Source: Isurus oxyrinchus (lineage: Eukaryota). From it: a stretch of 64,000 bases of DNA. The stretch spans positions 6,696,001 to 6,760,000 of the forward strand of contig JANJGN010000034.1 in the NCBI GenBank assembly GCA_026770705.1, in the 5' to 3' direction. Position 1 is the first letter of the stretch; each line of letters opens with the position of its first letter. Below are positions 21,429 through 57,466 of the stretch, piece by piece. The notes under the pieces were generated by a model. The model saw only the letters and a program-made list of their open reading frames with translations. It ran no database searches and had not been told where the DNA came from. The position numbers were made by a program, and so were the translations under genes.

Positions 21429-21467
21429 AGTTGACGTTTCGAGTCCTCATGACCCTTCGACAGAACT
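21429..21467 (-). ncRNA. Minimal type I hammerhead ribozyme fold (copy A)
   Basis: Minus strand: AGUU CUGUCGA A GGGUC AUGAG GACUC GAA ACGU C^ AACU. Stem I AGUU/AACU, stem II GGGUC/GACUC, palindromic stem III ACGU. Predicted cut between 21433 and 21432. Confidence 0.8.
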
Positions 21468-21487
21468 TGATTTCGAGTCCGAAATCA

Positions 21488-21526
21488 AGTTCTGTCGAAG
21501 GGTCATCAGGACTCGAAACGTCAATT
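21488..21526 (+). ncRNA. Minimal type I hammerhead ribozyme fold (copy B)
   Basis: AGUU CUGUCGA A GGGUC AUCAG GACUC GAA ACGU C^ AAUU, with a G.U wobble in stem I. Predicted cut after 21522. Confidence 0.8.
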
Positions 21527-21661
21527 CTTTTCTTCTCCGCCGATGCTGCCAGACCTGCTGAGTTTTTCCAGGTAATTCTGTTTTTGTTTTGGATTTCCAG
21601 CATCCGCAGTTTTCTTTGTTTTTATCTCTGTGTTTAATTGACTGCCACTGCTCTTCAAGAA

Positions 21662-22225
21662 ATGCCTACCTCCTTGAAGAAGTTCTGTTCCTCTCTGCGA
21701 CAAGATTTCCATATCTCTCTGTTGCCTTGTTCACCTTCTTTGCTTTCCATTTCCCTCCTAGTGTTTGACAAGGTGTTTACTAAAACCCGCTTTCACAGCC
21801 ATATCGCCTTTCTCAGTGACTGCCTCCGTCTCTGACATACCCCACGTGGATTTCAACTGAAATTCCACCCCTCATCATTCGAACCCACCCAGGATTACCG
21901 GTATCTCTGGGACATAAAACGTTTCTCAGACTGCTGTTCCCGTCACATTCTGAAATCCACACTCAGTGCCATGCGCCGCCATATGAACACACTCGACCTC
22001 TCCCTCCAGCAGCACCGCCGTACCCTTTTTTAAAGCTGCGCATGGCCCCAGTTTCATTTTATCCTTCGGCTCATCCGACGCCTCAACAAGAAACTTTTTC
22101 TCTTTCTCTCAACTGCTAAGGAACGCAAGCTCCAACAACTCATAGACACCAACACCCATCTAGGACCCTCCACCCCAGCCTGTCCCTCCGTCCCCACCCC
22201 ATCTTCCAATCCCAGCCCCAGCCGT
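21662..22225 (+). pseudogene. N-terminal part of the Penelope-like ORF, with two in-frame stops, truncated before the RT
   Basis: One frame from ATG 21662: MPTSLKKFC..HIAFLSDCLRL*HTPRGFQL..RTLF*SCAW..KERKLQQL..PSPSR, with stops at 21833 and 22031. The H..FL..C......P.G pattern resembles PLE N-terminal domains, and the segment lies directly after a pLTR. Confidence 0.7.
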
Positions 22226-22255
22226 GAAGAAAAAAATAAGAGGGACTCGAAATCA

Positions 22256-22294
22256 AGTTCTGTCGAAGGGTCATGAGGACTCGAAACGTCAATT
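22256..22294 (+). ncRNA. Minimal type I hammerhead ribozyme fold (copy C)
   Basis: AGUU CUGUCGA A GGGUC AUGAG GACUC GAA ACGU C^ AAUU. Predicted cut after 22290. Confidence 0.8.
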
Positions 22295-22764
22295 CTTTTC
22301 TTCTCCGCCGATGCTGCCAGACCTGATGAGTTTTTCCAGGTAATTCTGTTTTTGTTTTGGATTTCGAGCATCCGCAGTTTTCTTTGTTTTTAACAGCTTC
22401 GTATAAGTTTGGTGACAGATAGAAAAGAGAACAACTGAAGTTAGCTTTAGGGAATATATTCTACCTTGATATCACTGCATCATATTATCCATGCAAGTTG
22501 AATGTCATATATTATTGCTTCCGCCTGCAGTCATTCTAAGCAGTGGTGACATTTTCAGGTGCACATGTATATATGGACACCACAACAATTTAGAAGCCAA
22601 TACAGCGTGATGAAAGTGGACCTGTATTTGAATGAAAAGTAGGCTTTTTTTCCAGCAATTTGATCGGCTGGCCAACTAAGTCCAGTAATGAGCATTATTG
22701 TCTTATCGAACCCCAAAAGGCCATCTGTCACTTATTCCATGTCAGTAATCCACAGAGTAATGAC

Positions 22765-23088
22765 CCTTGTTCTGCTAATCACACATTCTCATTTCTTTCC
22801 CTTATGCCACTACCAGCAAATGCTTTAGCTCTTACCACTAGAGTTAACTCTCCCTTTGTCTTTTGTCCATGGCTTATTTCAAAATCTCTCCTTAGCCCCC
22901 ACGTATCGCTGATAATGTCTCCTGCTTCGACTGTACCACCCTCCGAAACAGTATGAACGTAATCAGATTTCTACCTCTATTTAGTGCTGCAGTAGAGTCA
23001 TACGGATTTGAAACGTTAACTCGGTTTCTCTCTCCACAGGTGTGGTCAGACCAGTTGAGTTTTTGCAGCACATTATGATTTTATTTCA
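22765..23088 (+). mobile_element. Older Penelope subfamily 3' UTR/pLTR fragment with decayed HHR (22983-23021)
   Basis: agtg-ctgcagta-gagtc-atacg-gattt-gaa-acgt-t-aact, then tctctccacaggtgtggtcagaccagttgagtttttgcagca. The upstream part resembles 57190-57410. Confidence 0.7.
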
Positions 23089-24449
23089 TTATTCTTTATT
23101 GTTGGATAGGAAGTTTAATCGTCGAACGTTTGTCTGTTGCAAATCCAGGCCGTGGTTCTGATGGGGCAAAATTCCTAATTTCTGTATAACTGTTAAATGG
23201 AGGCCTGTTAGGAGCACTTCTGCCTGTGAGTCACTACGTCGCAGATGCTAGCCCAACTCCAAAAGAAAGAAGAGCAAAACTGAGGTGGAAACCCCATTGC
23301 TCACCGAATGGAGGACTAAATCTCAGGTTTTTCAGCACTGTCAAAATGTGTTTGTTTATTTCAAATGAATCTTAACCGACAGCTTGCACATCATCTTTGT
23401 TGCAGACAAAGGTTTGCCGAGCATTTGCGATCTTCCCCGGAATCAGGCACATTATGTTAATCAAGCAAAATATCTAAAACAGCTTACGAGCTATTGCTGC
23501 TGTGCAAACTTTATGTACGTGAATTAAATTTCGATTTTTCAGCATTTTGAATTTGGTGCTTCGAACATGCTCTTAAAAAACAAATTAAATTTGTTTTGGG
23601 CCTTCCAAGCTTTATCATAGGATTAAGTCAAGCTATTTCAGATGGTTGAATTGACTTTCAATGTAAATTTCCATTTACTTCACATGAGTTTAACAATTGT
23701 CCAATGTGCTTTTCAAGTGGCATGACAAATACACTGAAAGTAAAGCATTGGCAATCACGAATCAGATGAATTGCAGATCATCCTTTGGCGCACACGGGTT
23801 GTGCAATGAAAAAAAGACATGGGAAGTTGCATTAAATAACACCGAACCAATGTTGTGGGGATGTTGAGATGCAGGAGGATGCAAATCTCATAGGCAAACA
23901 TGTAATTTACTCAGTTTTCCATTGCTCTGACAAAACCTTGTGTTGCACTGTTTCTTCAAAATTAATAGCCTTCCTGCTGCACAACATTTTATCATGTTCA
24001 TTTCTTCTTCCCAGAAAAAGACTTGGTTAAATGCCAGTTGGGTAACTATGTTGTTTCATTTATTTCTCTCCAAAGTTAAAGCACTATACGTCCACTATTC
24101 GGTATTCTATATGTGCGCCTTAAAATTGGGCCATGCAATCAGGATTTGTTACCTATAAACAAGGAACACGAACTCCCAAAAACTGGTGTAATTAACTTAA
24201 TTCCTTGGCCCGTTCTTCTATTCAGGTGGTCTTTGGCGTAACTTGAATTGATCATAATGGTTCAGACTTCCTTGTTAGCTTCAGCAAGCACTTGAAAAGA
24301 AAGCAATACACCCTTCCGATAGATTTTTTTTTCCTTCAAATGTCACCATTACCTCTTATTTGCGTGGATTGAGTTCCGATTTTCACCATACATTGTTTGC
24401 AGGTGTGTGTTCAAATTTCTCCCCTTCATGCAACACCTTTATTCCGGTT

Positions 24450-25808
24450 CAGACCATTTGTTCTGGGCGCCAGTAGCAACAAATCAGGTCAGCTTTATTA
24501 GTCCATTATGTTCTCTTATTTTCCTAAGGATCACAATATGGTAACCTCTCAAAGTTAAACACGTATTGGAATACAAATAAAATATATTCAAACAGTCCAT
24601 GCGGCCAAAGATAAGCACAGACTTTAGTTTGTGACTAAAACTGAAAGCAGGCAATGTTCTAACCCCATTGAAAATATAGTCTTAAGTAAAATATGGGTCG
24701 AAGTTTCAGTAATCACTGTGCTCATCAGCTCACGAATTCCAATCATTCCCCATGGTATCAAGAAACACCTGAATGCACACGATACAGTAAAGGCAACAGG
24801 TGTGGACAACATTCTGGCAATACCGATTGAGACATCTCCTCCAGAACTAAGTGTGCACCTATGCAAGTTATTTAAGTTGAATCATGCAACAGGCACTTAC
24901 AGGTAAAGTGGGAGATTGCCAAGGGCTGCAATATACATGCAAACAAAAAACAGCACGGATCCAACTCAGTCAATTACCCATACACGAGTCGAATCTCAAA
25001 TATCAGAAAAGTGATGAGATAGTTCATCAGCAGCACTATGAAGCGGGCACCAACTCAACAATCACCTTTTGAGTGATGCACAATATGGGTTCCACAAAGA
25101 ACCTCTCAGTTCCTGACGTCAGTTCATCTTTCATCCAAACATGTGCAAAAGAGCAGAAATTAAGTGGTGTGAGACTGCCTATCCTTAACATCAAATTATC
25201 ATTTGACCGAAGGTGACATCAAGGAGCCCCAGAAAAATAAAAAGACTGCATTCAATCGGTATCAGGGGAAAACTCTCCACTAGTTGGTGCGTTTAATATC
25301 ACCAAGGAAGATTATTGTGGTTTGTGGAGGTAAATTAGCTCAGTCCAGGGATATCGATGAAGGATTCCCTAGGAGTAATTCTGTCTTAGGCCCAAATGAC
25401 TTCAACTGTCTCGTCAATGACCTTCTTTTCATCATAAGTTCAGAACTGGGAAAGTTGGCAGGTAACTATTGAATGTTCAGCACCATTTGTGGCTCGACTC
25501 CTCAAATGTGGTATCCCTATGCAGCACGACGTGGACAATATTGAGGCTTGCACTTATAACTTGCTAGTAATAGTCACGTCATGCAAGTGCCAGACATACC
25601 CGTTACAAACTATACAGAACCTATCCATCTCTCGTTGACCTCCAATGGCTTTAACATCAATGATACCCCCAAGAGCATGGCTGTTTCAGCTGACCAGAAA
25701 CTGAAATGGGCCTCCTATTCAAATTCTGTGACTACAAGAGCAGGCAGGAGGCTGGAAATTCTGCGGAGTGTAACTCAAGCCCTGGCTCAAAAATGCGACC
25801 CCCAAACT
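24450..25808 (+). mobile_element. Old LINE RT region, left part (interrupted by a CR1 insertion)
   Basis: ORF remnants HDTVKATGVDNI..PELSVHLCKLF..TGTY and GFPRSNSVLGPNDFNCLVNDL are non-LTR RT motifs with frameshifts and stops. Confidence 0.75.
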
Positions 25809-25814
25809 AGCAGG

Positions 25815-27728
25815 GGGGCTTAAGATAGTAATTTGGAGAGTAAAGAGTGGATATGTGAACGCTCTGACTGGGAAATGTAGGGAAAATCCCAAGAAATTCT
25901 ATAAGTTTATGAATATAAAGAGGGAACTCGTGGAAAGAGTAGGGTCCATTGGGGACTAAGGGGACAATCAATGGGTTGAGCAACAGGAGTTGAGTCAGGG
26001 TCGAGTGTTCTACGGATGCCTCACAGCCATGTTCACCCAGAACAATACGGTTGAATGTATGGAAATCGGGGAGAGAGACTAGGATGTTCTTGAGGAATTT
26101 GAAATAGGGAGTAACAAGGTATCGGAGGTGCCAGCAGGCTTAAAAGAGGGCAAATCTCCAGATAAGGATTTTGTGGCTCCCAATGTGCTCAGGGAGGCAA
26201 AGCGGGAGATTGCAGGTGTTCTGACCCAATTTTTTAATTCCTACCTGGCTACTGGCATAATGCCAGAGGGCTGGAGAACAGCTAATGTGGTTCCACTATT
26301 TTAAGACGTTTGTACTGTTAAGCCAGGGAATTAGAGGCCAGTGAATCTCACGTCAGTGGGAGGGAAACTCTTGGAAAACATTCTGTAGGAGAGAATCTGT
26401 CTCTATTTGAAGAGGCACGGTTTTATGAGGGATATTCAGAATCGCTTTGTCAGAGGGAGGTCATGCGTAACAAATTTGGTTGAAAACTTTGAGGAGGTGA
26501 CCAGGTGCCTTGAGGAGACTATTGCATTTGACATAGCCCATATGAGTTTCAGGAAAGGATTTGATCTGGTCCCAAATTGGAGACTTCTAAAGAAGAAAAA
26601 TGCACTTGGTAACAGGGTACTTTGATAAGGTAGATTCAAAATTTGCATAGCTATAGGAGGCAGAGGGTGATGGCAGTAGGATGCTTTCATCGTTGTAAGC
26701 ACGAGTCCATTGGCGTGCCACATGGATCTGAGCTGGGTCCTCTGTTATGTGTCATTTATTTAAATGGCATAGATGACTACATGGGAGGTAGGATTATTAA
26801 GCTTGCGGATGACACAAACATTGGTGGGCTGGTTAACAGTGAGGTTGTGTATCTTGGGCTACAGGAAGATAGAGAAGGGCTGGTCAAATTGGCAGAAAAG
26901 TGGCAGATGGAATTTATCGCTGAAGAGTGTGAGAAATATATTTTGGAAGGAATAATTTGACAAGGAATTATTCAATGAACAGCATGATACCAGGAAGTTC
27001 TCAGGAACAAAGGGAACTTGTCGTGTGTCCATACATCTCTCAAGGTGGAGGGGCATGTTTGTGGGGAGGAGAAAAAGGCGTATGGGACATTTGTTCTTCT
27101 CAATCAAGGCATAGATTACAAAGGTAGGGAGGTCATGTTGGAGTTATATTGAAACTTGGTGAGGCAACAGCTGGAGAATTGTGTGCAGTTCTGATCGCGA
27201 TTTTATTGGATGAATGTGATTACATTGGAGGGGTTGCAGAGGAGATTCACCACGATGTTGCCTGGAAAGAAAATTTCAAGTTATGAACATCAATTAGAAA
27301 GACTTGTGTTGTTTTCGTTGGAGCAAAAAGAACACAGGTGTGACCTGATCGATGTGTACAAGATTTTGAGCGGCATGGACAGGGTGGATAGGGACCAGCT
27401 GTTGTCCTCAGTTGATGGGTCTGTCACGAGGGGACAGAAGTTCAAGGTGAGGGGCAGGAGGTTTGGTGAGAATGTGAGACAATGTTTTTTTTATGCAGAG
27501 GGTGGTGATTGGCCTAGAATGCGTTATCTGGGAGGGTGCTTGAGGCGGGTTGCCTCACATCCTTCCTAAAGTACCTGCATGAGCACTTGACACGTCATAA
27601 CATTCAAAGCTATGGGCCAAGTGCTAATGAAGAGGATTAGGTATTTCTGTCAGGTTTTTCTCACATGTCAGTGCAGAGTCGATGGGCCGAAACGTCTCTA
27701 CTGCAATGAATGATTATGTAATTTTGTT
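25815..27728 (+). mobile_element. 5'-truncated, decayed CR1 LINE (RT and 3' end)
   Basis: Q..FVRGRSCVTNLVENFEEVT..FRKGFDLVP, GVPHGSELGPLLCVIYLN..KLADDT, WQMEF..EEC and LEGLQRRFTTMLPG..RCDLIDVYKIL occur in successive broken ORFs. A 3' tail gatgggccgaa lies at about 27681. Confidence 0.9.
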
Positions 27729-28232
27729 ATCTACAAGGCACTAGTCAAGTACATGCTCGAATGCTCCACACTTTCTTGGAAGACTGCCACTCCAACAACA
27801 CGCAAGGAGGTTGGCACCTTCCACTATAAATCATTCCACCAGATTGGCATCACATACCTAACCCTCAATATGCACTTCTTCCATTGGCAAGAGCGCTTAC
27901 CAAAAGCACGATGCGCTGCGGTAACTCCCCAGTGCACCTTTGGCAACACATTTCAAAAACATGATTTCTCTGACACAGATGGCAATGGACACCAGGTTCA
28001 TGGGAAAACCATCACGTGGATGTTTCCCTAGAAGCCACACACCGCCCTCACCTGTAACTCCTTCGTCTGTTCTTCACTCAGCTGGCTCAGGATATTGGAT
28101 CTCCCTTCCTAACAGCAATGCCGGAGTTCCTACAACACCTGAATTGCAGGTGTTCAAGAAGGCCGCTCACTATCCCCTTCTCAAGGATATTAAGGATAGG
28201 CAATAAATGCTTGCCTAGCCAAGGCACCCACA
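27729..28232 (+). mobile_element. Old LINE, right part (continuation of 24450-25808) with 3' tail
   Basis: Starts atctacaaggcactagtc..MLECSTLSW..PTTRKE, homologous to 17022-17291(-). Ends ttcaagaaggccgctcac...ggcaataaatgcttgcctagcc. Confidence 0.75.
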
Positions 28233-29414
28233 AATTAGCAAATTAACATTGAACAAATGGTGAATAAATTAAAAAAAAACAAACTTCAGTCGTTTTTCAC
28301 TTCTCATAACTCAACAATCGCAACACACACTAATTTATGTAATAGTAGCGCAGCTACTTCAAACATTAAAACCTTATCAGCCTGTTTTTTTTCTCTTTGA
28401 AAGAAAGAGCTTGAGGCTGACCTTATTGGGACATTTCAAAAGCTTGAACAGTTATATTAAAGGAAGATTCGTGATTATATTCCCAGCTTTGTAAGAAATC
28501 AGAGCTAGGTTTCATGCATGTGTGATTTCCATTAATATAACCCACAAGGTGTCTGGGGAGCTGAGGAAGATATTAACTTTGCAGCGTAATAATAAATACA
28601 TGCAAATTGCCTGGAATTATTTAAAGCTATTATAGATAAGCATCTGAGAAAGAAATTACGAGATATTTCTGTTGCAAACAATAGACGTGGAATGATCACC
28701 GGAGATTCGAGTAAAACATTAATATGTTAATGAAAAATATGGGCACAAGGGCTTTTTAACACTTTGCTTAGCCAACGTGATTCCAAATATGTGTGAAAAA
28801 TATCCGACTGAATTCTCTGCAACTACTGTTCGGTGATCACCTGTGCATGTCTCCAGGTCCTCGCAACTCAACCGCCTACAGCCTTAAATGTCGTTAAATG
28901 TGAATTGGTTAAGAAAAATGATTATATTTTTGCAATGTTATTTTGTCATTGCTTTCAATGAGCTCAGCAAACTGAATAGAAATTTACTGTCATTGTTGCG
29001 ACGGCAATGGTTCAGGAAATATGACAATCCTGGTAAAACGACTTCTGGGTTAATTAAGTATGATAAATGTTGCATGTAGTGACAGGACACGCAATTCCGA
29101 AAATGTAGACTGGTCACTGCCACATGACTAATGCTTCAGTATCATGTTTGTATACAAGAACTGAAATGTAAAATAAAATAATTGTGATTCTTTAAAGCCC
29201 TAAGCATATTACATATGATAGACCGAACAATTCTATATTAGTAAGGCGCAGACTTTCAATTTGCAGTTCCCCTTGCAGGCCTGTTTTTTTCTGGCAAATC
29301 ACACGAAATGTGATTTGTATTGCAAATGATGAGATTTTTTTTTTTTCGGAGACATCAATGTTAGAGACAATTCAAATCAAAATTTTAAAGTGAAGCAGAC
29401 ACCAAGTTTTTAAT

Positions 29415-29511
29415 ACAAAAACAGAATTACCTGGAAAAACTCAGCAGGTCTGGCAGCATCGGCGGAGAAGAAAAGAGTTGACGTTTCGAGTCCTCATGAC
29501 CCTTCAACAGA
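29415..29511 (-). mobile_element. 97-bp Penelope pLTR mini-insertion with a 14-bp TSD
   Basis: TSD accaagtttttaat at 29401-29414 and 29512-29525. The insert matches pLTR copy A except for one G>A change (tcga>tcaa). Confidence 0.93.
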
Positions 29512-29514
29512 ACC
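29476..29514 (-). ncRNA. Minimal type I hammerhead ribozyme fold (copy D)
   Basis: Minus strand: GGUU CUGUUGA A GGGUC AUGAG GACUC GAA ACGU C^ AACU. The 5' strand of stem I overlaps the TSD. Confidence 0.7.
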
Positions 29515-32500
29515 AAGTTTTTAATGTTTTAGGCAGAGTTAAACAGGGCGAGTGAAGCCTGCATATTCACAACTAATCATTCAATATCTCCTTCCCTAAC
29601 TCTGCCTTACTTTATTAAATCGCATGAGTCAAAACTGTCAGTACCACTTTTGAAAGAAAAATGGTGGCTCTAGACAGCTGTGAACACAGACCAGTTCAAG
29701 TGCTCTACACCACCACGTTTGCTGCGCATGAACATTTTAAGCACTACATCAGTTCAACATTTTAAAGACGTTTCTTGACTTTTCGTGAACTACCCTACCT
29801 TACACTTAAGGGAAGATGACGTGTTTCTGCTTGCTCTTGCTTGACAGAAAATGAAAAACTGAAGCAAGAATTGATAAAGAAAGGTGAAGAATGAAAATGA
29901 TGAGGATGGCTAACTTCATGACTTGTGCCATTGAATTTTCCTTTCAGCAAAAGAGTGGCACTGGTTAAAATATGTAGATTGGAAATGGTTTGTAATGGGC
30001 AATGCTGCCTTTTTTCGCAAACTGAAGGTTAGCTAATTCATGAAATCAATGCAAATCAATTTTAGATGCATCATATTGAATAGAAATGACTGTAACGGCT
30101 GAAAATGATTATTTTGACCTACCATAAATCAACCACTTTTTTGAATGCTTTGCACTCGCTTTGTCACAAACCATGCTATGGATACCACCAGACTCAAGAA
30201 TGTTCCCCTGTCTGGAAAGCCTCGTGCACTAGCCTTATGATTGTGTAAACCAATACCTCTGCTGCACAAATCCTAACTGGCCTCACATTTTCATCATTCT
30301 GATCGCCTCTCCAAATATGTGAAATGTGACCCAATGCTACAAACCTACAGGATATAAGAATCCCTAAAATCTGGCATTTATATATATATTCCGTTGCCTA
30401 GGCCATCTGCTTTGCAATTATTTCTCTTAACATCCCCGTGGCCTCCACTCTTGCTCTTCCTTGATTCCCTTAAATTTACCTCTGTGCACGAGATTCTTGT
30501 TAACAGACATAGCAATATGTTCTTCACTGCAAATATTTATTTGATACAACTCCTGTGAAATGTACTTGAGTGCGAATTTTGCTTAAAGTCCCAATAAAGT
30601 CGCAGAAAAAAATCAAGTTATTTTATCTGTAGTTAAGTATGAAATAGCACGATTTAAAATCTTCAAAATGTTTTCACATATCCAGGCGGTGATTTGAAAG
30701 ACCTGTTCCCAGGTAATGGATCAATTAATGGATGATTATAATTTAGCAAAAAAAAGACCATCGCCATTATTGCTTAGCTACAATCATAGAATAGTAAAAT
30801 GATGCGGAACTTAAGATGGGCAATCTGCCCATGAGCAATGCAACTGCCTTTAAGTAGACCTGTTCGATTCAAATATATTAACTGTTTCTTTATTTTATCA
30901 AATAACAGTGTTTTACATTTTTCGTAATTTCGCAATAGCCCTATGAACATTGCAGTTCAATGTCCTGCTATCACATAATTACATTGTGCATTTTACATTA
31001 CACTGTTTAAATAACGTGAACTTTCTCTGGAAAGACTCTCTTTTTACTTACATGACCAGCCGCAATGGTGACCTCGGACACCCCATGCTGAACAGCCTTT
31101 TAATCTAATTGCTCTCAGGTTAACTGTTTATTTTGTCCAGTCACTGTATCTAACTCAAATCGTTCAATTACCATTCTATATGCATTTTGTTATGGCCCGT
31201 TAGTGCCCTTCTAATACTTGATCACGTTGGCAAATTCCTTGTGGCCTGCAACATTTGAAATTTTAACTTGATGGTAGAAATTATTTCCGCCCTCGGGGAG
31301 ACTTCAGCGAGAATGCATAATGTTAATTTAAAAAACTAGCCTTTTCAAAATTGAAATTAGGAAACACATTCTGTAGGCAGGCTGGTCGGATTTTAAACTC
31401 TCTTCGGTAAATCACAATGGATGGTGAACAAGTCATCATCATTTTTACTTTCTGAATGTGTTAGGAGACTTGGGGGAAAGGTCGTGTACTTATAAGTAGT
31501 CAAGTCTTCACTTTGTTGAAGGGTCGTAGGCAGAATTTTTTTTTTCTTGAGTTCACATCCTACTATAAATGCATGTCTCCGGGTCATTGATTAATGGCAA
31601 TGGAGAAGTGTCCCCAATACAGTCTCCATTAAAACATGACACTGAGTTTGAATTAATCAAAAAGAGTTTCTGTGTATTTTTCAGCGTTCGCTCAAAATAT
31701 CGTCCTAAATATAGCCCAGGTACAGATGGGAATTTTCACATTGATGCACAGCAACAATAAACCATTAACATTATGCCTATCTGGCGTTTTGGAACAATGG
31801 CAAGTAAAGAAACGTCATTGTTGGCCCACCTGCATATGATTTTGGTGGTCAAATATTCTGAATGTTAGACACCACACTTTAAAAAAAGCCAACGTTTCAG
31901 AGAAGATGAAGAGGACATTTCCAAGAATGATGCAAGTGGTGAATGAATACAGTTATGCGGATAGAAAATCTATCTAGTGGAAATGGGTGTGTAGCTAATC
32001 TACATGTATTTAAGAAAATTGACAAAATAAGCATAGGTAAGCTGAGCAAAACTTGTTTTATGCATCAGGTTTACGTGGAACATATGATGGGAATAATGAA
32101 CGAAGAATATTCAATAATAACAATGTGTACTTGTAGTAAGTAATTGAAGGATAGTATAGTTCTGAAGCAATGGGATATACAGGGGTGAGTTGCACTGATT
32201 GTATTGTTCTTCTAACGAGTAGGTACTGCGATGATGAGTATAATGAATTACAATTGTGTTGCCTATTGACATATTCTGATGTGAGAAAGTCCATGTTGGC
32301 ATTTATACTCGAAGCCATCCATTGCAACCTGATTTTTTTCGAATGTGGAAGTGTTTGACATGTGAACTTAATTCGACTGACTTCCACCCTATAAACATAT
32401 TATTCGAGAAAAAAAATCTGCTGATGAGTGGTATTTAAAATTTGGAAGCAATTCCAAATATTGACTAGTCTATGTGAACAAAAGTACTAAAAAAAGAATA

Positions 32501-33834: not shown

Positions 33835-34030
33835 CAGTGTGGCCATTAACAGGGAGAGAGTGAGAAAGAAACAGCAAGTTAATTTAATGTGAGAGTGTGA
33901 GAGAAACACGGGGGCCATTTACATGGTGAGAGTGTGAGAGAGGCAGAGTGGCCATTTACAGGGAGAGAGTCTGAGAGGAGCGGGCATTTAACAGGGAGAG
34001 AGTGATAGAAGATAGAGGCCATTAGAGAGC
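33835..34030 (+). repeat. Degenerate tandem repeats in the CR1 5' UTR (ggccatttacagggagagagtgtgagag-like units)
   Basis: ggccattaacagggagagagtgaga, ggccatttacatggtgagagtgtgaga, ggccatttacagggagagagtctgaga and gggcatttaacagggagagagtga recur. Confidence 0.75.
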
Positions 34031-42793: not shown

Positions 42794-42825
<32 letters not shown>

Positions 42826-46341: not shown

Positions 46342-46512
46342 AAAGCAAAATACGTTGGATTCTGGAAATCTGAATTATAAACAAAAATTTCCTGAAAAAC
46401 TAAGCAGGTCTGACAGCAGCTGTGGAGATACAGACTGACTCCAAACATTAACTCGATGTTTCTCTCCAAAGATGCTGTCAGACGTGCAAAGTTTTTTTCC
46501 TGCAATATTTTT
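46342..46512. mobile_element. Decayed head-to-head inverted pair of Penelope pLTR tails
   Basis: The left arm ctggaaatc..cctgaaaaactaagcaggtctgacagcagctgtggaga is a minus-strand pLTR. The right arm gactccaaacattaact..tctctccaaagatgctgtcagacgtgc is a plus-strand pLTR. Confidence 0.7.
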
Positions 46513-47859
46513 AGTGAGCTTTTGAACTGAACAATGTTTTATTGTATACAGTAAGAAACATGATAACGTGGTAATAAGCAACAGTAATACTAATGTTGTT
46601 GTAAATATTCTTACATCCCATAAGGCTGTGCATTATCTGAAAAACAGCTCCACATTAATTCATTAATTTCCCCATTCACATTATGTCTTCCATGTTTTAA
46701 AAAAGCAGCACTTCCCATTCGTGGATATCGTGCAAAACCCAACCACGAGTTCTTTCCAGAGCAGATAATTCAAAAGAGCAGACACTTTGCGAGGAGTAAT
46801 TGATCGTAATCTCCATATCAAATGGGCTATTCGTTATTCTGAAAGTCTGACCACTAATAAAGAAACGCCCACAAGGGAAATATCCACTCAAGGTGGAACT
46901 TGCCATGCCGCTGATAACCTGATATGGTCAAGTAAGTTCACTTTTCCAGCTGTTTGATACATTATTATTATGAAGAGATGAACACTGACCATTTGTAGGC
47001 GTACGATGCATGTGCATCTTTCGAAACCAATTATCTTTAATCACTGCATCATTTTTTCTCTCAATTGGAACTGGATGCCTACGCAAAACCTGATGGTGGG
47101 TGGAATGTTACTACATAATCGGAGAGACCACAGAGCTGGTGGTATGTAAATGCACTTGGTTCAGCTCAATATTGCCTGCTGGGTAATTTTTCCTAAGATG
47201 CTGATTACCCCTGTCTGAAAGAAGAAACTAGCAACAAACGTAATTTGGAATAGACCAGTTTAAGGAGGGAAGCTTTAAAGAATTATTCTTAGTTGAAAAG
47301 TGGCATGGGGCATTTACACAACACAAGTATCAAACGATCTGCAACAAAATAAAATGCCAACATCTCTCCCTGGCATTCAAGGACATTACCATCTCTAGAA
47401 CCACCAGTTATAAACATTCTATGCGTTATGATTGACTCTATTCCGTTCCTGTGCAAATAACCATCCCTCTACATGTGATCAGTAAACAATCAAAGCTATG
47501 CCCTGCTCCTGAATTTAGTCATTGTTAAACATATATAGTTCACATTTGTCAGATCGAAGATGGGTTTTGAAGAATAAGCCCAATTTTATGTGCCACAGGA
47601 AAAAGTATGGAATCCGACTATACACTCATGGTCATGTTTATCTGAATCATATTATAAGTGGAAATATTCACAAGCACATCTTACTTTTACTCGTTTTAAA
47701 ATAGATATGCTGTGAGGGCAGTTTTATATTCCTGCTGGTCTAGTAAATTTCTTAGAAGCTGTATAGTTATTTATTCATTGGATCGGTGATCAAGAATATT
47801 GTAATTATTATTTTCCATCTGCAATTGCAATTGTAAATATGTCTGTAAGCTGCCTTTTG

Positions 47860-48175
47860 ACGGGTTGCAATTGGTGTCACTCATGTTCACGCACAGTGTT
47901 TTTTTGGCTGAGGTGCCATGATTTTGCCATCGTGGCATTGAACGAGCAGTGATTTCATTTCCAATCATGGCGGTGTGAGCCTTAAAAGTGAACTTGTAGG
48001 CATTGATGTCTCTCAATCTTTCTTGTCGCATACTTGGAAAATGTTTTTGAAGACATTTTGCCAAGGCAGTACAGTGCATATTCGGCATTGTACATCTGTT
48101 GCCATTGTCTCCCAATGTTGGAGTAATGAACATTCCAGGTTCTAGAAGGGATGCCAATAAATCAGGCTGTTTTTA
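47860..48175 (-). mobile_element. Old LINE 3' fragment (family of 16790-17350)
   Basis: ORF 47771-48157(-) contains CTMPNMHCTALAKCLQKHFP, homologous to CTIYKMNCRRSSRLLRQCIP in 17022-17291(-). Confidence 0.5.
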
Positions 48176-49474
48176 CAATTAGATGTCAAATTCTGTGATT
48201 GCTGCCGCAGCTGCCCTGAGATAGGTAACTGTAGCTCGTCCCTTTGCATTCGTGAAGTGAGCACCACAAATCTCGGCCTGCTTTAAGAAGTTAAGTATTG
48301 AGTTACTCACTGCATACTTACCACCCTGATAGCTGCACCTATAGCCATATTATATGTCTGGTTGTTCCAACGATGTTTCTACTCAATGCTTGCCCACAGA
48401 ATACCGATGATTTCACTGATGCTTGTATCGTTGAATGTCAAGGACAGATAACTAGGTTCTTCGTTACTGGGGGCTGGCGTTACCTGGCAGTTAAATGGCA
48501 GCTGTGGTAACTATGTTTGAAATGTTTAAAATTATTGAAAGAATTATTATGTCAGAAAGAGACACCATATTTCCTCTTAGTTGGAAGTCGATCACAAGGC
48601 AACATTATGTTCAATTTAAATTCTAACTAGTGAAGACTGCTGCCAGACAACACAGCTTTTTAAATAGGGTGTTAGAAATCTGCAGTGATGTCTTCAAAAG
48701 CAAAAACACATAAAAAAAACGAAAAATGAATTTTGAAACGCGAATGAAAAGGAAGTATTAATACTTGCTCGAAGTCAATTTGTGAAAAAAGTGGTCTTCT
48801 GAATTGAACATATTACCCCTGAACATATTAAAGAAAAGGGAATGATTAAAAACAAAACATATCTAACCAGAAATGAAAGCAAGGCTGCAATACGAATGGG
48901 CAGTTACCAAAAATACGTTTTTTTTAATGAGTTCTTTGCCACAGTTTACAAACCGCAGGAAGACCATTCAATATCAATGGTACCAGAGCTAAAATGCATG
49001 CGAAAGTTGAATTTAGTGAATTAAATATAGACTAAAGCATGGTAAAAATGATAGTAAAGGTGACAACTCCCCAGCAGCGTGAGGTTTCTAGCCAAATGCA
49101 TTAATAACATCACGTGGCAATAAGAAAGCTGCATTTATCAAAATTTGCCAAACATTCTAATTTCACGCTCCAACCTTCGAAAGTGCAGCGTTACGCTGCC
49201 CAGACATGGACTTGGATGCTTGCATCATCAACCTCGAGGCCACAGACGTGGGAAAGGCGCCCTAAAAACTCCCTTAAGTTTACAATATTGTCCATAGAAA
49301 TTGAGGTGATTCACAGAAGAAACTGCAACAGGCAGCCCTATTATAGAAACTGCTTTTAAAAGAAGCTCACACCGCAATCAAAAACCCCGACACTAAAACC
49401 ATCACTTCTCTTGACCAACGTTAACAGGCAGTCACCATCTTAACCTTGCACATACCAGCCCATCCTCTAAGATA

Positions 49475-49790
49475 TAAGCAAAAAACTGTGGATGCTGGAA
49501 ATCCAAAACAAAAATAAAAATAACTTGAAAAACTCAATAGCTCTGACAGCATTTGCGAAGGGGAACACATTTAACATTTCGAGTCTGTACGACCGTTCAA
49601 CTGAACTAAGGAAAAATAGAAAAGAACTGAAATATACGCTTGTTTAAGGGGAGAGATGGGACAGGTAGAGCTGTTTAGAGGGCCAGTGATAGGTGGAGAT
49701 AGCCAAAAGATGTCATAGACAAAAGGACAGAGGTTTTGAAGGTGCTGATATTATCTAAGGAATGAGCTAATAGGCGACATCAAGGGTAGA
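49475..49790 (-). mobile_element. Intermediate-age Penelope 3' UTR plus pLTR with decayed HHR (49569-49607)
   Basis: The reverse complement aligns by eye with 57200-57527 (attagc..ttagataat..cttttgtc..gacatctttt..ctatcactg..ttaaac.agc.tatatttca). HHR remnant: agtt-cagttgaa-cggtc-gtaca-gactc-gaa-atgt-t-aaat. Confidence 0.8.
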
Positions 49791-51279
49791 AAGCAGGACG
49801 AGCAGAGTACTGATAGCCCTTGGGTAAAATATAGAGATAGAACAATGTCTTGTGGGTTAAGTCGGAGACGGAGACAGTCTGAGCCACCCCACCCTCTACA
49901 TCCGCCGTACTCATCAGCTGTTTGACGTTTCTGCAACAAACATTATTTCATGAACTAGAAAGAATCCAGCAACTGTGTGAACAATTCAAAATTGTTGAAA
50001 GAACGTTAAATCCACAAGACCAAATGTTTTATTATTGCGTCCATCTTAAGGGTCGTTTTAAACGTTTTTCATGACTGTACCTTCCACGTTTGCTTAAAGT
50101 AACTTAAAGAGTACACGAAGGTCACAAGCAATGAAACGTTTTCTAAACAATGCATGTGGTCAAAATGCTTGGAATCTTGTTAGAGAAAACAAAAATCTCT
50201 TCGTAACACTGCAATGATGCTTGACCTCCAGGAGCTTCCTGGAAATGGTGAGACAAATGAGGTGGGCACTGCATCTTCTGCTCTTCATCAAACGTGGCAT
50301 GATATGCGCCTTGCCACTAGACCTAGCTGCTCTCTGCCCGGATGGTTGGCTGCTGCATCCGAGACAGTAAGTCTCTGATACCCAAGCACAAAAAAGGCAA
50401 GGCCGCAGCAAAATCACGCTCTGTGATGTGCGCCCTGGCCTTGATGTTGACGGGAGTATCTGCGCCATGTTAATCTTCTGAGGAGAGCATGTGCCTGTTG
50501 GATAATGAAATCCACGTTGTCAGTGACTAGACATGATGTACAATGTCATTTATAACTTTTCGTTAAAAAAGGATGTTATCCAAACTTGCTGTATTGGTAA
50601 TTACTTGCCAATGAGGTGCGTGTTGTCATACCATGAATTAGGGGCAATCTGAACTCACATGTAAAACAGTTGTGTCTTCGGGGGAATAACTTTGCATACA
50701 GTTTGCAGTTAACACTACATGGATAGAATGAAATGTCGTGATTGGATCAGCAGCCAGTTGTCTCAGGCTGGTATTAATCCTTCCGGCTAATAGTGGTCCT
50801 GTTACCACATCAATATAATGACAGATTCACCGAATCAATCCTCAATCAAACCGTCATGTTAAAAACAACTTTAAAAATAATGGTGTATAAATGACGTGAA
50901 GGTTTTATTTGCCACTCCCATTCAATGATTTGTAATTTATTCTTCTACTAGGCGAACAGTTGAAATACATAAAAGCAGGTAAAACACTCTTCCAATTGTC
51001 TAATTTTAAGATAAAATGATATTGAATATGTGGTACCGGAAAAATAGATGATTTCAGGCAGCGTGACTATACTGATATTTATACGCTCCATGTGCTACGT
51101 CTAGAATTCTTAATCCCATCCGTCCATTAAAACCTTCTAATCATTTCTCTGTCAGGCATTTATCCAGCACCCTCACAAATGCATCTTTTTCATTTGTTCA
51201 TCTACTCAATAATTACTTAATTCCTGACAGTATACAATAACACAAATATCTACCATTCGTTGAAACACTCTTTGTTCAT

Positions 51280-51390
51280 CCGTGTGCATGTTTGAGTGTG
51301 CACGCACGTGTGTATGTGCATTTATGCGTCTGTGTGGATGTTTGGGTGCGTGTGTGTCTGCGTGTGTGTGTGTGTGAAAGAGAGAGACAG
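51280..51390. repeat. Degenerate (GT)n/(GA)n microsatellite
   Basis: Read directly from the sequence. Confidence 0.85.
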
Positions 51391-51660
51391 AGTTTATGCA
51401 TTGTGCATGTCTGCTTTGAAATAAAAAAAAGATTAAAATCAAAACAATTATGTATTTTACGATGTAAGATTATTATTTTATCGATATATTTTCAGCATTG
51501 ATGAGAAGATGAGTTACACTGCAACAGAATTGTTCATATTCAGAGGGCTTGGTAACGATTGTACTTTCACTAATGATTGAGCCAACCTCGACTAGTAAAG
51601 GAAACGACTTCCACGTGTGTAAGCCTCCACATGTTATTTTTGCAATTACATATTAGTGGC

Positions 51661-51695
51661 CTCTCTCTCTCTCTCTCTCTCCCCCTCTCTATCTC
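51661..51695. repeat. (CT)n microsatellite
   Basis: Read directly from the sequence. Confidence 0.9.
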
Positions 51696-52159
51696 ACAAA
51701 ATAGTTAGTAAATATTTTCGAATGTGAAACTCATGATCTCTTTATATACTTAAATTTGTGCCCGATGCCGCGCCAATTTGGAGTACAGAGAGATATGCAA
51801 ATAGATTCACTGAGCGTTGAATTAGTGTCCTTGCTGTGAGTAACATTTTAACTCAAAAATGAATGAGGATTGCTTTCGTTCATTATTGATCTTTAGATTT
51901 CTTCTAATGTTTAATTCCATTCGCTGGTGACTGTTCATATTTTGAGTCTTATTGAGGAGACAGAAAGCTGGCATTGCATCGCTTTGTTGAATCAATAACA
52001 AGTTAAATAATCAAATGCCTAAACGAGGTTAGTCAGGAATGGTGGAGCATGTGATGTTTTTATCTGGGCTATGTAAGAGTCTGTTTTCCACGTTTTGTCC
52101 AAGAACAACGGCATTTTTTGCCAAAGCTTGAGCACATTAGGTTCAGAGTTCAAGAGTAA

Positions 52160-52385
52160 AGAAAATGCAATTTCTGGAAGCCTGATTTATTAAAGAGAGA
52201 CAACGCCGGAAATTCTCAAGAGAACAGCAGCATTTTTGTAGAGAGAAAAAAAAGAGCTAATGTTTCAGGTCAATCAGAGGTAATTAGTTGAAAGGACACA
52301 GACCACAAAGTTCAAAGTCTATTTCGTCTCCAGCGATGCTGCTCAAAATGATGCGTGCGTCCATATTTTTTTGCTTCTGTTTGAA
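52160..52385. mobile_element. Highly decayed inverted pair of Penelope pLTR-like tails
   Basis: The left arm cagcagcatttttgtagagag..agagctaatgtttcaggtc resembles a minus pLTR (compare 9481-9530). The right arm gaaaggacacagacc..gtctccagcgatgctgc resembles a plus pLTR. Confidence 0.45.
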
Positions 52386-52899
52386 ATCAGAGTTGTGAAG
52401 GTCCAATCATGACTGTAGAGCAAGCAGAAGCTTGAAAATTACATGTTTCTTTCACAAAGAGACAGTCATATTTGTGTGTCAGTTAGAAAATTAAATTTTT
52501 TCATTTTCAACAGCAGCAGTGTGTCAGTGTGCATCCTGCAGAGAGTGGAATTATCATGCAATCACGAATGCATTCGACAGTGAATTTGATCATATTGTAC
52601 GCTAGACTTCCTACTATGATTGTACAGAAAGTACAGAATTGGCGACTGGACACGCTGTCTGTGATATGTTTATGTCCTTAAAGTGAGTGGAGTAAAAATC
52701 AAATTTGGAATTGAGGGACGCCAGCATAGGCTCGTGTGTGCATACTGTTCCTTTCAGCCACGTTTTGTAGTACTGATATTTGTGTCGCCTACCCAGAGAA
52801 AAAATTAAAGGCATCTCCTCGTTTATGCAGTTGAAATTTCTGAGGGAGAGTAGCTAGATTCCCAATTGGCTTCGTGCAGATGGAAAGCTACAAAACTAT

Positions 52900-53250
52900 G
52901 AATGAAATTCCGCTGAGAGAGTATGGGGAGGGAAGGTCAAAATTAAAAGTTACCTGAGCCACATGCCAAAGGGATCACACCAACTAACTGGCAGAATTAG
53001 GTATGAGCAATAAATTTGATGATGTAGCATTCGATGCCCACGTGCTATGAAATAATACGAAAAAAATAAGGGAATTGCTACAAGAGTGGAGTAAGTGGAA
53101 GGGGATTCGACTGTTTGAGCATTAGCACCAGAATGGAGAAAAGAGTGAACTGATCCATCGTGAAGGACGCAAAGAAGAAAGGTTCTCTTCAATGTTCTGG
53201 AGAATCACGTGACTAGGGCGACATTCAGTTTTGTTATCCCGGCTAATTTT
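52900..53250 (+). mobile_element. Highly decayed CR1 ORF1 (esterase) fragment
   Basis: ttacctgagccacatgccaaa and gaaggggattcgactgtttgagcattagcaccag parallel ctaactgagccacaagcaaa and gaggggtttgagttcacggggaactggaaacag at 35044-35157. Confidence 0.4.
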
Positions 53251-54881
53251 AGGACTGGTCAAACCAGGCTCCTGAATAGACCGGGGTTCATCGGCCCTAT
53301 TGATTAATTTTCTTTGCTTAGAGACATGGATGACAGCTACTGAACAAAGTAATATGAATCACATGATGCACCTTTAGCAGGAGATTTAAAAACTTATTCA
53401 GCAAGTCAAGGTGACTTATATTACAATACGCCTTCATCCACAGCTGTACCTCTACAGATATATTGAGATTCGTAAGCATAACACAGGTTACAAATGCTGT
53501 CTTATACTCTCATTTGCACAGCAAGTGCACAGTTCATGTGAAGCAATAGGCGACCTGTGGCCAGGCACACCAGACCCTGAGAACAAGTGACAGATGCTGC
53601 CAAAAGCAGCTGCCTTTGACCACTCATCAATTCCTGCTCGACGTATTTCACCAAGTTAGCCAACTAGTCTACCTCAACTATGCCATTCATAAGAGGGTTT
53701 CCAAAATCCACTGCTTTGCACTTTTCTCCCAAACTATGGTCTCTCTTGGACGTCATCGACAAGGCTCCATCTCCAGTGATGTGATCTCTCCTTCCAGTGT
53801 ATCTTTTCACTGGATCGCCACGTGTAATCATTCTTTGTCTTCCACTCTCTCTCTCTCAGGTACTGAGCTGTGACAACATGCCCACAGTAACTAGCCACCA
53901 CCCTTTTGATGTTTCCTTGAATCGTCTGGCTTCTCACATTCTGATTTTCTTTCATCCGGTGCCCTGCATCTTTCTCTCTATACTTGCCTACTTCCTCTGT
54001 TTCTCACAATTAACTTCACTTTTAGGAATTTTTGTCCAGATTTCCGTTCCTTTCATTTCATTAGATTGTCTTCTTGAGATTCTTCCTTTCCAATGCACCC
54101 TTTGGCTCAGCGACCTTTGGATTATTTCATGATTTATTTTTTCTCTCTCTCTTCGTTACACTCTGTTGTGTGCAGCTTCTCTTGGTTCCTGGGTTCAGCT
54201 GAACTAAACATAAATCTATTTCTGTTTTTCTCTGTCTGCATGTGTCTCTCCATCTGGGCCCCTGTTGCTGGCCAACAGCACATTTTTTTCCACTTTGTGT
54301 TTGTTTTAACTTTTCTTGAAGTTTGTAAAACCTCACTAAAATTCTGGCATCTTTTGAAGTGAAACAAAAACCGAAGTTTTCCTTTGTTTAAAACGAGTAC
54401 TGAAACACAATTTAAACTTAAACTTAAAAATAACATTCCTTCCTAGACCAAGAAATACCAAGAAATATAATTCACTTAACCTATCTCTGTTGCCTAGCAT
54501 TTGATTTGAAAGCACCAGGATGGCTCAGGTATAAGGGAAAAGTGCTTTTCGAAATCATTAGATAAATTTTGGGGAAATAAAGCAATTTGATTTTATGTTT
54601 AAAGAAAATATGAGCGTGGGGGGCAAAGAAAAATGGTTTCTAATGGTACATCGAAAAATATTTCTATGGATTGAATTATAGGAAACAATTGTTGTCACCT
54701 GACTAAGTGAAGCATTTGATGTAAGCTGGCAGAGCCAGTGTCATAAGTAAAGATTTATGTTTAGATCTAGACGCCATTATGCATAGATAGGGCTACATTT
54801 CCCAAATCATCTCGAATGGGGAAAAAAATCAATGGGAAAACATACCTACTGATTTTACTGTTATGTGATTGTTCTTCTTCA

Positions 54882-55060
54882 TTCATGGGGGCGTGGCCTT
54901 CGATTGCTGGGCCAGCATTTATTGCTCATCCCTGTTTGTCCTTCATAAGGCGGTGTTGAGCTGCCTTCCTGAACAACTGCAGACCATGTGGTGTAGGCAC
55001 ATTCACAGTGTTGTTTTATGGGACGTCACATGACCACATCCAATTAAAGCTTAGTGGTAT
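54882..55060 (-). mobile_element. Old LINE 3' tail (family of 16790-17350)
   Basis: ggccagcatttattgctcatccct..aaggcggtgttgagctgccttcctgaacaactgcag matches 16814-16895. Confidence 0.7.
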
Positions 55061-55369
55061 GTTATCGGAATGCCATAATTCTGAAGAAAGTAACCCCTCC
55101 TAGGGCTGCTAATGAACCTGACTGTTTGGCCACAGTTGCACTCCAACAGCCCTATTGGGTGTGGCGTTCAATGTTGGTAATACAGGTAATCCTCATATCA
55201 CATTTGTCCAGATATGGGAACAAAGATAGGTCACAGGTTTCTTGGCAGTGAAAGGAGTGGATGGGTTGGCGTTAGTGTTGTGATGATGTTTGTGGGTGCC
55301 ACTTTGCAAAGGGAAATTTTGCAGGTAAACCCAACTAGGGAAGACATTTAGAGAACACTGGATTATGTT

Positions 55370-57034
55370 TCCAGGACTGTCACTGACCTCATCTCCTCTG
55401 GGGATCTCCCTCCCACAGCTTCCAACCTGATAGTCGCCCAACCTCGGACGGCCCGCTTCTATCTCCTACCTAAAATCCACAAACAGAACTGCCCCGGTAG
55501 ACCGATCGTCTCAGCTTGCTCCTGCCCCACAGAACTCATTTCTCGTTATCTTGACTCCCTTCTCTCTCCCCTTGTCCAGTCCCTTCCCACCTACATCCGT
55601 GATTCCTCTGACACCTTACGTCACATCAACAATTTCCAGTTCCCTGGCTCCAACCGCTTCCTCTTCACCATGGACGTCCAATCCCTCTACACCTCCATCC
55701 CCCACCAGGATGGTCTGAGGGCCCTTAGCTTCTTCCTCGAACAGAGGCCAGAACAATCCCCATCCACCACTACTCTCCTCCGTCTGGCTGAACTTGTTCT
55801 CACGTTGAACAATTTCTCCTTCAACTCCTCTCACTTTCTCCAAATAAAAGGTGTGGCTATGGGTACCCGCATGGGCCCCAGCTATGCCTGTCTCTTTATG
55901 GGATATGTGGAACATTCCTTGTTGCAGTCCTACCCCGGCCCCCTTCCACAACTTTTTCTCCGGTACATCGATGATTACTTCGGTGCCGCTTCATGCTCTC
56001 GTCGGGACTTGGAAAAATTTATTAATTTTGCTTCCAATCTCCACCCCTCCATCATTTTCACGTGGTCCATCTCTGACACTTCCCTTCCCTTCCTTGACCT
56101 CTCTGTCTCAATCTCTGGTGATAGACTGTCCACTAATATCCATTACAAACCCACTGACTCCCACAGCTACCTCGACTACAGCTCCTCACACCCCGCTTCC
56201 TGTAAGGACTCCATCCCATTCTCCCAGTTCCTTCGCCTTCGTCGCATCTGTTCCGATGATGCTACCTTCAAAAACGGTTCCTCTGACATGTCCTCCTTCT
56301 TCCTTAACCGAGGTTTTCCACCCACGGTCGTTGACAGGGCCCTCAACCGTGTCCGGCCATTCTCCCGCGCATCCGCCCTCACGCCTTCTCCTCCCTCCCA
56401 GAAACATGATAGGGTCCCCCTTGTCCTCACTTATCACCCCACCAGCCTCCGCATTCAAAGGATCATCCTCCGCCATTTCCGCCAACTCCAGCATGATGCC
56501 ACCACCAAACACATCTTCCCTTCACCCCCCTTATCGGCATTCCGTAGGGATCGCTCCCTCCGGGACACCCTGGTCCACTCCTCCATCACCCCCTACTCCT
56601 CAACCCCCTCCTATGGCACCACCCCATGCCCACGCAAAAGATGTAACACCTGCCCATTCACTTCCTCTCTCCTCACCGTCCAAGGGCCCAAATACTCCTT
56701 TCAAGTGAAGCAGCATTTCACTTGCATTTCCCCCAACTTAGTCTACTGCATTCGTTGCTCCCAATGTGGTCTCCTCTACATTGGAGAGACCAAACGTAAA
56801 CTGGGCGACCGCTTTGCAGAACACCTGCGGTCTGTCCGCAAGAATGACCCAAACCTCCCTGTCGCTTGCCATTTTAACACTCCACCCTGCTCTCTTGCCC
56901 ACATGTCTGTCCTTGGCTTACTGCATTGTTCCAGTGAAGCCCAACGCAAACTGGAGGAACAACACCTCATCTTCTGACTAGGCACCTTACAGCCTTCCGG
57001 TCTGAATATTGAATTCAATAACTTTAGGTCGTGA
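55370..57034 (+). pseudogene. PLE reverse transcriptase / GIY-YIG endonuclease ORF, 5'-truncated, with one premature stop at 56975
   Basis: The frame is open from 55370: FYLLPKIHK..GRPIVS, FTMDVQSLYTSIP, QIKGVAMGTRMGP, RYIDD, LPFLD; Cys linker CPRKRCNTC; LVYCIRCSQCGLLYIGETKR..RFAEH. After the TGA at 56975 the frame continues LGTLQPSGLNIEFNNFRS* to 57034. Confidence 0.95.
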
Positions 57035-57427
57035 GCTCCCTCCCCCATCCCCACCCCCTTTCTGTTTCCCCCTTTTTTCCCCCTTTTTTTTCCCTATAAA
57101 TTTTACAGATTTTTCTTTTCCCACTTATTTTTAAATATTTTAAAATCTTTTATGCTCCCCCCACCCCCACTAGAGCTGTACTTTGAGTGTCCTACCATCC
57201 ATTCTTAATTAGCACATTCGTTTAGATAATGTCACCAACTTTAACTTTAACACCTATGTGTTCTTTTGTCCCATTGTCACTGACATCTTTTGATGATCTG
57301 CTTCTATCACTGCTTGTTTGTCTACACAAGCACCTCTGTCTCTCTCTCTCTCTCCGCCCCCCCCCCCCCCCCAACCTACACACCTTAAACCAGCTTATAT
57401 TTCAACTCTTTCCTGGACTCGAAATCA

Positions 57428-57466
57428 AGTTCTGTCGAAGGGTCATGAAGACTCGAAATGTCAACT
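57428..57466 (+). ncRNA. Minimal type I hammerhead ribozyme fold (copy E)
   Basis: AGUU CUGUCGA A GGGUC AUGAA GACUC GAA AUGU C^ AACU. The stem III palindrome has changed ACGU>AUGU (CpG transition). Predicted cut after 57462. Confidence 0.75.

Follow-up and report, generated by a model that had tools for sequence, protein, structure and literature searches.

The 64,000-nt stretch of Isurus oxyrinchus DNA considered here (contig JANJGN010000034.1, positions 6,696,001 to 6,760,000; hereafter the window) contains five 39-nt motifs with the layout of a type I minimal hammerhead ribozyme (min-HHR), located in the pseudo-long terminal repeat (pLTR) of a young Penelope-like element (PLE) that encodes a reverse transcriptase (RT) and a GIY-YIG endonuclease. 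In all five motifs, position 6 of the core is U instead of the consensus A. As judged from the sequences, these motifs are probably real descendants of the PLE min-HHR, predicted to be slowed by the fixed A6U change; the RT likely reads through them, and the making of copies would not depend on ribozyme processing. Hammerheads of PLEs are already known; their cutting is weak, and one element inserted normally without it. What appears to be new is that a dominant recent lineage has become fixed for a change at position 6, its A6 ancestors still being present beside it.

Hammerhead motifs of the window

The motifs, named A to E, lie at 21429-21467(-), 21488-21526(+), 22256-22294(+), 29476-29514(-) and 57428-57466(+), inside a longer repeat of 100-150 nt. 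They share one layout, which comprises the first strand of stem I (AGUU), CUGU[C/U]GA, an A, stem II (GGGUC/GACUC with a 5-nt loop), GAAA, [C/U]G, UC and the second strand of stem I (AA[C/U]U). A scan of the whole window for this layout returned these five motifs and nothing else. An earlier note, made from the letters alone, had listed the same five and assigned them, as a minimal hammerhead of type I, to the pLTR of a young vertebrate PLE with an RT/GIY-YIG ORF; both the list and the assignment are borne out. Of the features of type I min-HHRs, G10.1-C11.1, the extra nucleotide after A9 and stems I and II are present. Motifs A to D have an NUH cut site (GUC) and a palindromic helix III (ACGU), and cleavage of motif B is predicted after 21522. 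In motif E, helix III reads AUGU and pairs only with two wobbles. Motif A has the U6 C7 core, which is the commonest form in the genome, and motif D a U6 U7 core. The 39-mer of motif A has 52,044 exact copies in the genome (G000; 4.98 billion bases searched) and its reversed control has none, so that the motif is not a chance occurrence. In an Rfam scan of the window with E values up to 1, the hammerhead models gave no match; a single chance match to low-complexity sequence was returned.

The differences between the five copies had been read as sparing the core and the pairs. This pattern is no evidence of conservation. Motifs B to E depart from motif A at just six places, one of them common to B and C; two of the six are CpG transitions, whose inevitable effect is to convert a G-C pair into G-U. 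Motifs B and C share the same G-U wobble in stem I. Over 113 nt, copy E is matched with 100% identity at no fewer than 33 places in the genome, with both the loop II change and the AUGU helix III; a sub-lineage with a variant loop, combined with CpG decay, probably explains them.

The 3' half of the motif (stem II strand, GAA, UC) is nearly repeated in 13 nt that immediately precede stem I, at 57415-57427, 22243-22255 and 21468-21480. This near-repeat occurs in the youngest subfamilies only, the older ones being devoid of it. A permuted second ribozyme at this place was set aside on topology.

Position 6 of the core

The hammerhead consensus core is CUGANGA, and the published min-HHR consensus has U3-A8 as its only variant (PMC4209133). 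The earlier note had written the CUGU[C/U]GA core correctly, leaving its departure at A6 unflagged. This departure is a property of the whole recent lineage. When U6 is replaced by A6 in the motif A 39-mer, 56 exact genomic copies are found vs 52,044 with U6 (0.11%), as expected from back-mutation, and a sample of 63 young copies, drawn irrespective of the motif, has U6 in all 63. Other backbones are represented by 1,842 (A6) and 18,021 (U6U7) exact genomic matches. A looser canonical (A6) pattern is found at 987 places, and the 30 loci that were read all belong to the same lineage.

A tree of 141 copies (145 columns, positions 6-7 masked, midpoint-rooted and poorly resolved) displays a ladder from A6 through U6U7 to U6C7, with A6 at the long-tipped end; the A6 label requires 3 changes on this tree vs 25.8 when shuffled. 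The median nearest-neighbour distance is 0.067 for 27 A6 copies with the old flank vs 0.021 for 83 U6 copies with the young flank. Outside this genome, 80 loci of metagenome contigs with related proteins were scanned for motifs with the required pairing (a design that cannot serve as a covariation test); 19 carry a sense-strand motif, of which 17 have A6. In the published alignment, A6 is found in the 44 of 44 rows examined, although the descriptor used there fixed A6 (PMC4209133). A6 is ancestral and U6 derived in this lineage, because the older subfamilies, 17 of the 19 relatives and the published rows carry A6. The two non-A6 relatives are each known from a single contig. In L224, a distant relative (47% protein identity), the motif at 2791-2824, about 290 nt behind the ORF, combines a U3-A8 swap with U6 C7; L201 has a G6 form at 1982.

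What A6U does to activity can be approached from other ribozymes. The natural A6C hammerhead of phage Bcep176 cleaves at <0.1 per min (Perreault et al., 2011, PMC3088659), and single mutants of CUGA had low activity when a type III hammerhead was fully scanned by mutation (PMC9901934). A collapsed-core fold was considered as an account of A6U and rejected; predicted pairing of the core strands is 0.87 in U6U7, which would fit, and 0.12 in the commonest form U6C7, which would not.

A further core mutant was itself propagated. The double mutant U4G+A6U is found in 411 copies, and in several inverted insertions both arms are mutant, which shows that such an RNA served as a template. Two separate inverted insertions, L293 and L294 (C1:124.3 Mb and C1:138.4 Mb), have the same apex junction and U4G in different flanks, as if a palindromic copy were itself a source or the junction recurrent. 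Older variation was also noted. In still older A6 A7 copies (L306, L317, L326), one position of stem I is a C-A mismatch (AGCU/AACU); later subfamilies are U-A there, and the pair may have been restored. In older GUU subfamilies (L341, L342, L346, L349, L359), short deletions of the helix III palindrome recur between two AAC repeats, and slippage is their likely cause.

Ends of the copies

Ends were mapped against 80 natural references in 199 copies from 1.06 Mb of sequence, drawn from 20 stretches picked by the exact motif, 51 by a downstream anchor and 29 at fixed intervals, plus the window. The 3' ends are bimodal, near +102 and +138 from the motif start, which places them 67 and 103 nt beyond the cut site. 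There are 61 mutual head-to-head pairs; among the 56 that could be classified, 51 combine a long arm with a short one (P=5e-11), with arm ends about 36 nt apart. A target duplication, mostly of 13-15 bp, was found in 51 pairs. Taken with the two internal start sites shown for the Anolis element (PMC11167929), these ends indicate that reverse transcription begins downstream of the cut site and must cross it.

If cut RNAs were copied, many copies would start at +35. Among the 147 copies not picked for the motif, the 5' end lies at -16 to +15 in 68 (1.45% per position) and at +34 to +37 in 3. The stretch that follows the cut site has 85,820 matches genome-wide, of which 84,898 have the C before it and 922 do not, and 30 loci without this C resolve into 12 true junctions, 17 point changes and 1 deletion, so that copies beginning at the cut site are estimated at about 0.5-0.6%. 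The earlier note had called the family a ribozyme-processed system; with so few copies starting at the cut site, and a core that is off consensus at A6 and predicted to be of low activity, this view is not supported.

The pile-up of 5' ends at -16 to +15 may mark the 5' end of the RNA, or a stall. It should be distinguished from an apparent peak at the motif start itself (42 of 199 copies), produced for the most part by older subfamilies whose upstream flank is different.

Conservation of the fold in inserted copies and in the source lineage

An excess of conservation of core and paired positions over the flanks had been expected among genomic copies. It was not found. In the 63 copies sampled without regard to the motif, the core departs in 8 of 567 non-CpG cells and the flank in 2 of 441 (P=0.20), and the catalytic G12 is decayed in 7 of 63 copies, as other CpGs are. 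Inserted copies decay neutrally. Conservation among them is moreover the wrong test, because they are not under selection.

The source lineage was examined through the commonest letter at each column in six subfamily groups, columns used to define the groups being left out of the statistics. This letter is constant in stem I, in the ten other core letters, in the extra A and in the palindrome. Stem II shows one change, at position 13, where A-U and G-U alternate and the pair is kept; position 17 is U or C, never G. Within the motif, changes are confined to loop II, position 7, position 17 and the one pair-keeping stem site. Conservation is almost as high beyond the ribozyme, from +55 to +84, with 1 change in 30 columns after A6U. 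These patterns give modest support to the idea that the structure has been kept in the source lineage, and have no bearing on whether the motif still cuts.

The element and its protein

Full-length natural units of about 3.34 kb were found as tandems (partial tandems and one trimer), and open frames of 917-918 aa are present in genomic copies L015 and L043. The ORF of copy E is 97% identical to the full protein over residues 364-898. In the window frame, RVT_1 scores 33.9 bits (cut-off 29.6), and GIY-YIG 20.7, below its cut-off of 22.6 but in place. The protein has DKG at 322, MDVQSLY at 465 and YIDD at 563, a CX4CX2C linker (CPRKRCNTC) between the RT and the endonuclease, a CxxC between the GIY and YIG parts, and later H residues. 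Motif E follows the usual end of the ORF at a distance of about 395 nt, which confirms the link between ribozyme motif and RT/GIY-YIG ORF proposed for this copy in the earlier note, and the motif start precedes the ATG of the next unit by about 174 nt.

The element is an endonuclease-positive PLE, with an RT, a C-terminal GIY-YIG domain, DKG, CCHH and pLTR features. A linker of this type is found in 98 of 102 homologues with the endonuclease motif. According to Craig et al. (2021, PMC8557442), the CX2-5CxxC linker is present in Neptune and Nematis and absent from Penelope/Poseidon. Judged by this linker, the present element appears to be of the Neptune/Nematis type. Since the linker is present here and absent from Penelope/Poseidon proper, 'Penelope-like' is correct and the 'Penelope family' of the earlier note is loose. 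Nor does the element correspond to a non-LTR retrozyme, which would form head-to-tail arrays of short non-coding units with canonical hammerheads; in the window, to which this search was confined, the copies lie scattered, with target duplications and with parts of the ORF. The best identities among the 120 homologues listed are with two named shark proteins (67% and 64%), which points to a shark as the host, and a search of solved structures with the protein gave no match at E 0.01.

The family was detected in public RNA-type contig sets from three organisms; such contigs are silent on ends, strand and level. Some members of the group retain a spliceosomal intron; across four sets of assembled contigs, no intron-like joint was seen in the leader. 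The whole pLTR is predicted to fold no better than shuffled sequences (z=0.19).

How the copies may be made, and what the motif may do

The slowed-descendant reading given at the outset can be cast as a mechanism. By analogy with the Anolis element (PMC11167929), the protein would nick both target strands about 14 bp apart, and reverse transcription would start inside the RNA at two sites, one per strand, giving the long-arm/short-arm inverted insertions. Copies longer than 67-103 nt would then derive from RNA that is uncut, or re-joined, at that hammerhead. As long copies need such RNA, fast cleavage would work against mobility. A6U would be tolerated because copy-making does not need cutting, and the fold would be kept in source elements, most likely for low cleavage assisted by the protein or by dimerization, or as a structured RNA leader.

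Several observations weigh against this reading. The older class of copies, in which 14 of 20 readable cores have A6, shows the same value of about 0.5% at the cut site (54 vs 3,523 matches; 5 true junctions in 30 loci). A6U is thereby ruled out as the cause of a lost cleavage footprint: older, A6-rich subfamilies lack it too, and the missing footprint is general. After A6U, 0 of the 31 other fold columns changed their commonest letter vs 4 of 16 neighbouring columns (P=0.013); against a wider set the figures are 0/31 vs 5/46 (P=0.076). Restricted to the ten other core letters, the comparison gives P=0.14. This constancy in the source lineage fits a still-working ribozyme equally well. The predicted probability of an open core is 0.07 for A6 and U6C7 alike. 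The occurrence of U6 (with U3-A8) and of G6 in two unrelated elements suggests that position 6 may be well tolerated in minimal ribozymes, and a literature test of A6U itself was not found. Finally, if cut RNAs were re-ligated into circles, no trace of the cleavage would be left in the copies.

The first alternative, which we regard as rather unlikely, is that the U6 motif is a working ribozyme, active as a dimer through the ACGU palindrome or folded by the protein, which cuts tandem transcripts whose units are re-joined into circles and copied for more than one round, in line with the earlier note and with Cervera and De la Pena (2014, PMC4209133). The unchanged core letters, stems, extra A and palindrome after A6U would be expected in this case, as would the kept pair at stem II position 13 and the U or C, never G, at position 17. 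The partial tandems and the trimer of 3.34-kb units agree with it, circles would account for the lack of a DNA footprint, the independent U6 and G6 variants of the relatives point the same way, and the Anolis motif cleaves in the presence of its own protein (PMC11167929). However, position-6 changes lower activity in the ribozymes tested (PMC3088659, PMC9901934), canonical minimal motifs are themselves weak in vitro (PMC4209133), and 8 of 9 Xenopus dimers remained uncleaved (bioRxiv 10.64898/2026.07.22.740005). Moreover, copies starting at the cut site are not in excess, and U4G+A6U RNAs were copied. In the window, motifs A and B are in opposite orientation, so that a transcript spanning both would be expected to fold into a long hairpin instead of a dimer.

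The third and least likely reading is that of a catalytically dead relic, its letters kept only as an internal promoter or start site at the DNA level or as a protein-binding leader. It agrees with the internal promoter of Drosophila Penelope just downstream of the start site (PMC2377424), with the accumulation of 5' ends at the 5' border of the motif, which transcription starting at this place would produce, with the conserved +55 to +84 stretch and with the spread of Naiad elements without canonical hammerheads. Against it, the changes that occurred are confined to sites where a ribozyme tolerates them (loop II, positions 7 and 17, and one stem site whose pair is kept), and the core layout is shared by relatives that differ in their stem sequences. 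Folding predictions do not appear to discriminate among the three.

A bolder version of the slowed-descendant reading is put forward tentatively, and is rather unlikely as a whole: the most successful recent retroelement lineage of this genome would have risen by throttling its own ribozyme. A6U would have been favoured, because reverse transcription must cross the cut site, and would have swept, the fold being kept for residual or non-catalytic use and position 6 acting as a recurring dial in Penelope-type hammerheads. Were this true, the A6 > U6U7 > U6C7 subfamilies would constitute a ready-made natural allelic series for the role of the hammerhead.

Independently of the reading preferred, this lineage amounts to a natural test: it exchanged the canonical core for one with a change that is usually damaging, and went on to produce near-identical copies by the tens of thousands. 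If U6 cleaves well, the core rule for minimal hammerheads needs amending; if it does not, the lineage demonstrates in vivo that an element can spread successfully while its ribozyme is crippled. In practice, searches limited to CUGANGA miss the dominant form, one canonical pattern giving 987 matches vs more than 52,000 for one U6 sequence. A 2017 study by Lunse, Weinberg and Breaker is, to go by its title, said to deal with small hammerhead variants of PLEs. No earlier report of a fixed position-6 change in a dominant recent PLE lineage was found in the literature; the search did not extend to that study, which may list position-6 variants or shark sequences, or to a supplement of the Cervera paper.

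Insertions in the window

Target-site duplications show that the five motifs, counted as five copies in the earlier note, result from three insertion events only (14 bp for A+B+C, 14 bp for D, 11 bp for E), to which a sixth, decayed copy that had not been listed must be added. The compound insertion A+B+C spans 21367-22392, between duplications at 21353-21366 and 22393-22406 (+), and all three of its arms end at -13 to -8. It starts with an inverted, 5'-truncated pLTR arm that contains motif A (21367-21480, - strand) and has the short 3' end, at about +102 from the motif start. Motif B is followed by the start of the ORF (ATG at 21662) and an N-terminal fragment with in-frame stops (21662-22223, + strand), which breaks off and jumps to the pLTR arm with motif C (22243-22392, + strand); this arm has the long 3' end with its 36-nt tail, at about +137. 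Motif D belongs to a solo 100-nt pLTR insertion (29401-29525, - strand) with its 14-bp duplication at 29401-29414 and 29512-29525.

Insertion E (55368-57527) is 5'-truncated and lies between 11-bp duplications at 55357-55367 and 57528-57538 (+). Its ORF (55368-57034, + strand) starts at residue 364 of the 917-aa protein and comprises the RT, the CX4CX2C linker and the GIY-YIG domain with CCHH; an in-frame stop at 56975-56977 precedes the usual stop of the family at 57032-57034. The 3' untranslated region and the pLTR with motif E follow (57035-57527, + strand), with a short 3' end. No microsatellite targeting was seen at the three insertions of the window.

The sixth copy is an older remnant of the same lineage, 77% identical (49470-49649, - strand), with what is left of its motif at 49569-49607(-). 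An older inverted pair of the downstream segment of this lineage, without the 5' part of the core, lies at 46380-46500. Comparison of the window with itself also revealed a second, unrelated old repeat, inverted and 75% identical (28126-28219 and 54906-55000).

Comparison with known systems

Minimal hammerheads were described in the pLTR of metazoan PLEs by Cervera and De la Pena (2014, PMC4209133), and a review indicates that PLE hammerheads with a short stem III cleave as dimers (PMC6765202). The motifs of the window resemble the published min-HHRs in being of type I, with a 4-bp stem I, a 5-bp stem II with G10.1-C11.1, an extra A after A9, GAAA-CG-UH and a palindromic helix III, as well as in their placement in the pLTR, between the ORF stop and the next ATG. 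In both cases most copies are dispersed and truncated, with close pairs on opposite strands. In contrast, the core is CUGUYGA here and CUGANGA there. The published rows examined contain no cartilaginous fish, and the numbers given reach about 9,000 motifs per genome vs more than 50,000 identical copies here.

For the Poseidon element of Anolis carolinensis (PAc), Frangieh et al. (2024, PMC11167929) report that reverse transcription starts at two internal sites, both 3' of the hammerhead, which define the tail, and that both target strands are primed. Hammerhead mutants were without effect on insertion in vitro, and RNA ends were not seen at the cut site. Unlike in PAc, whose ORF starts inside the motif, the ATG of the present element lies about 174 nt after the motif start and its protein has a Zn-finger linker; the core change is natural and fixed here, whereas the PAc core mutants were engineered.

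With the Neptune/Nematis PLEs (PMC8557442), the element shares the C-terminal GIY-YIG with CCHH, the CX2-5CxxC linker and the DKG motif, together with partial tandems, an adjacent inverted copy and a 30-40 bp tail at one end. The Bcep176 hammerhead also has a natural position-6 change, there with low but detectable activity (PMC3088659). However, it is known from a single phage locus and has C at this position, whereas in the present lineage U is found in a minimal, dimer-type motif and is fixed in tens of thousands of copies.

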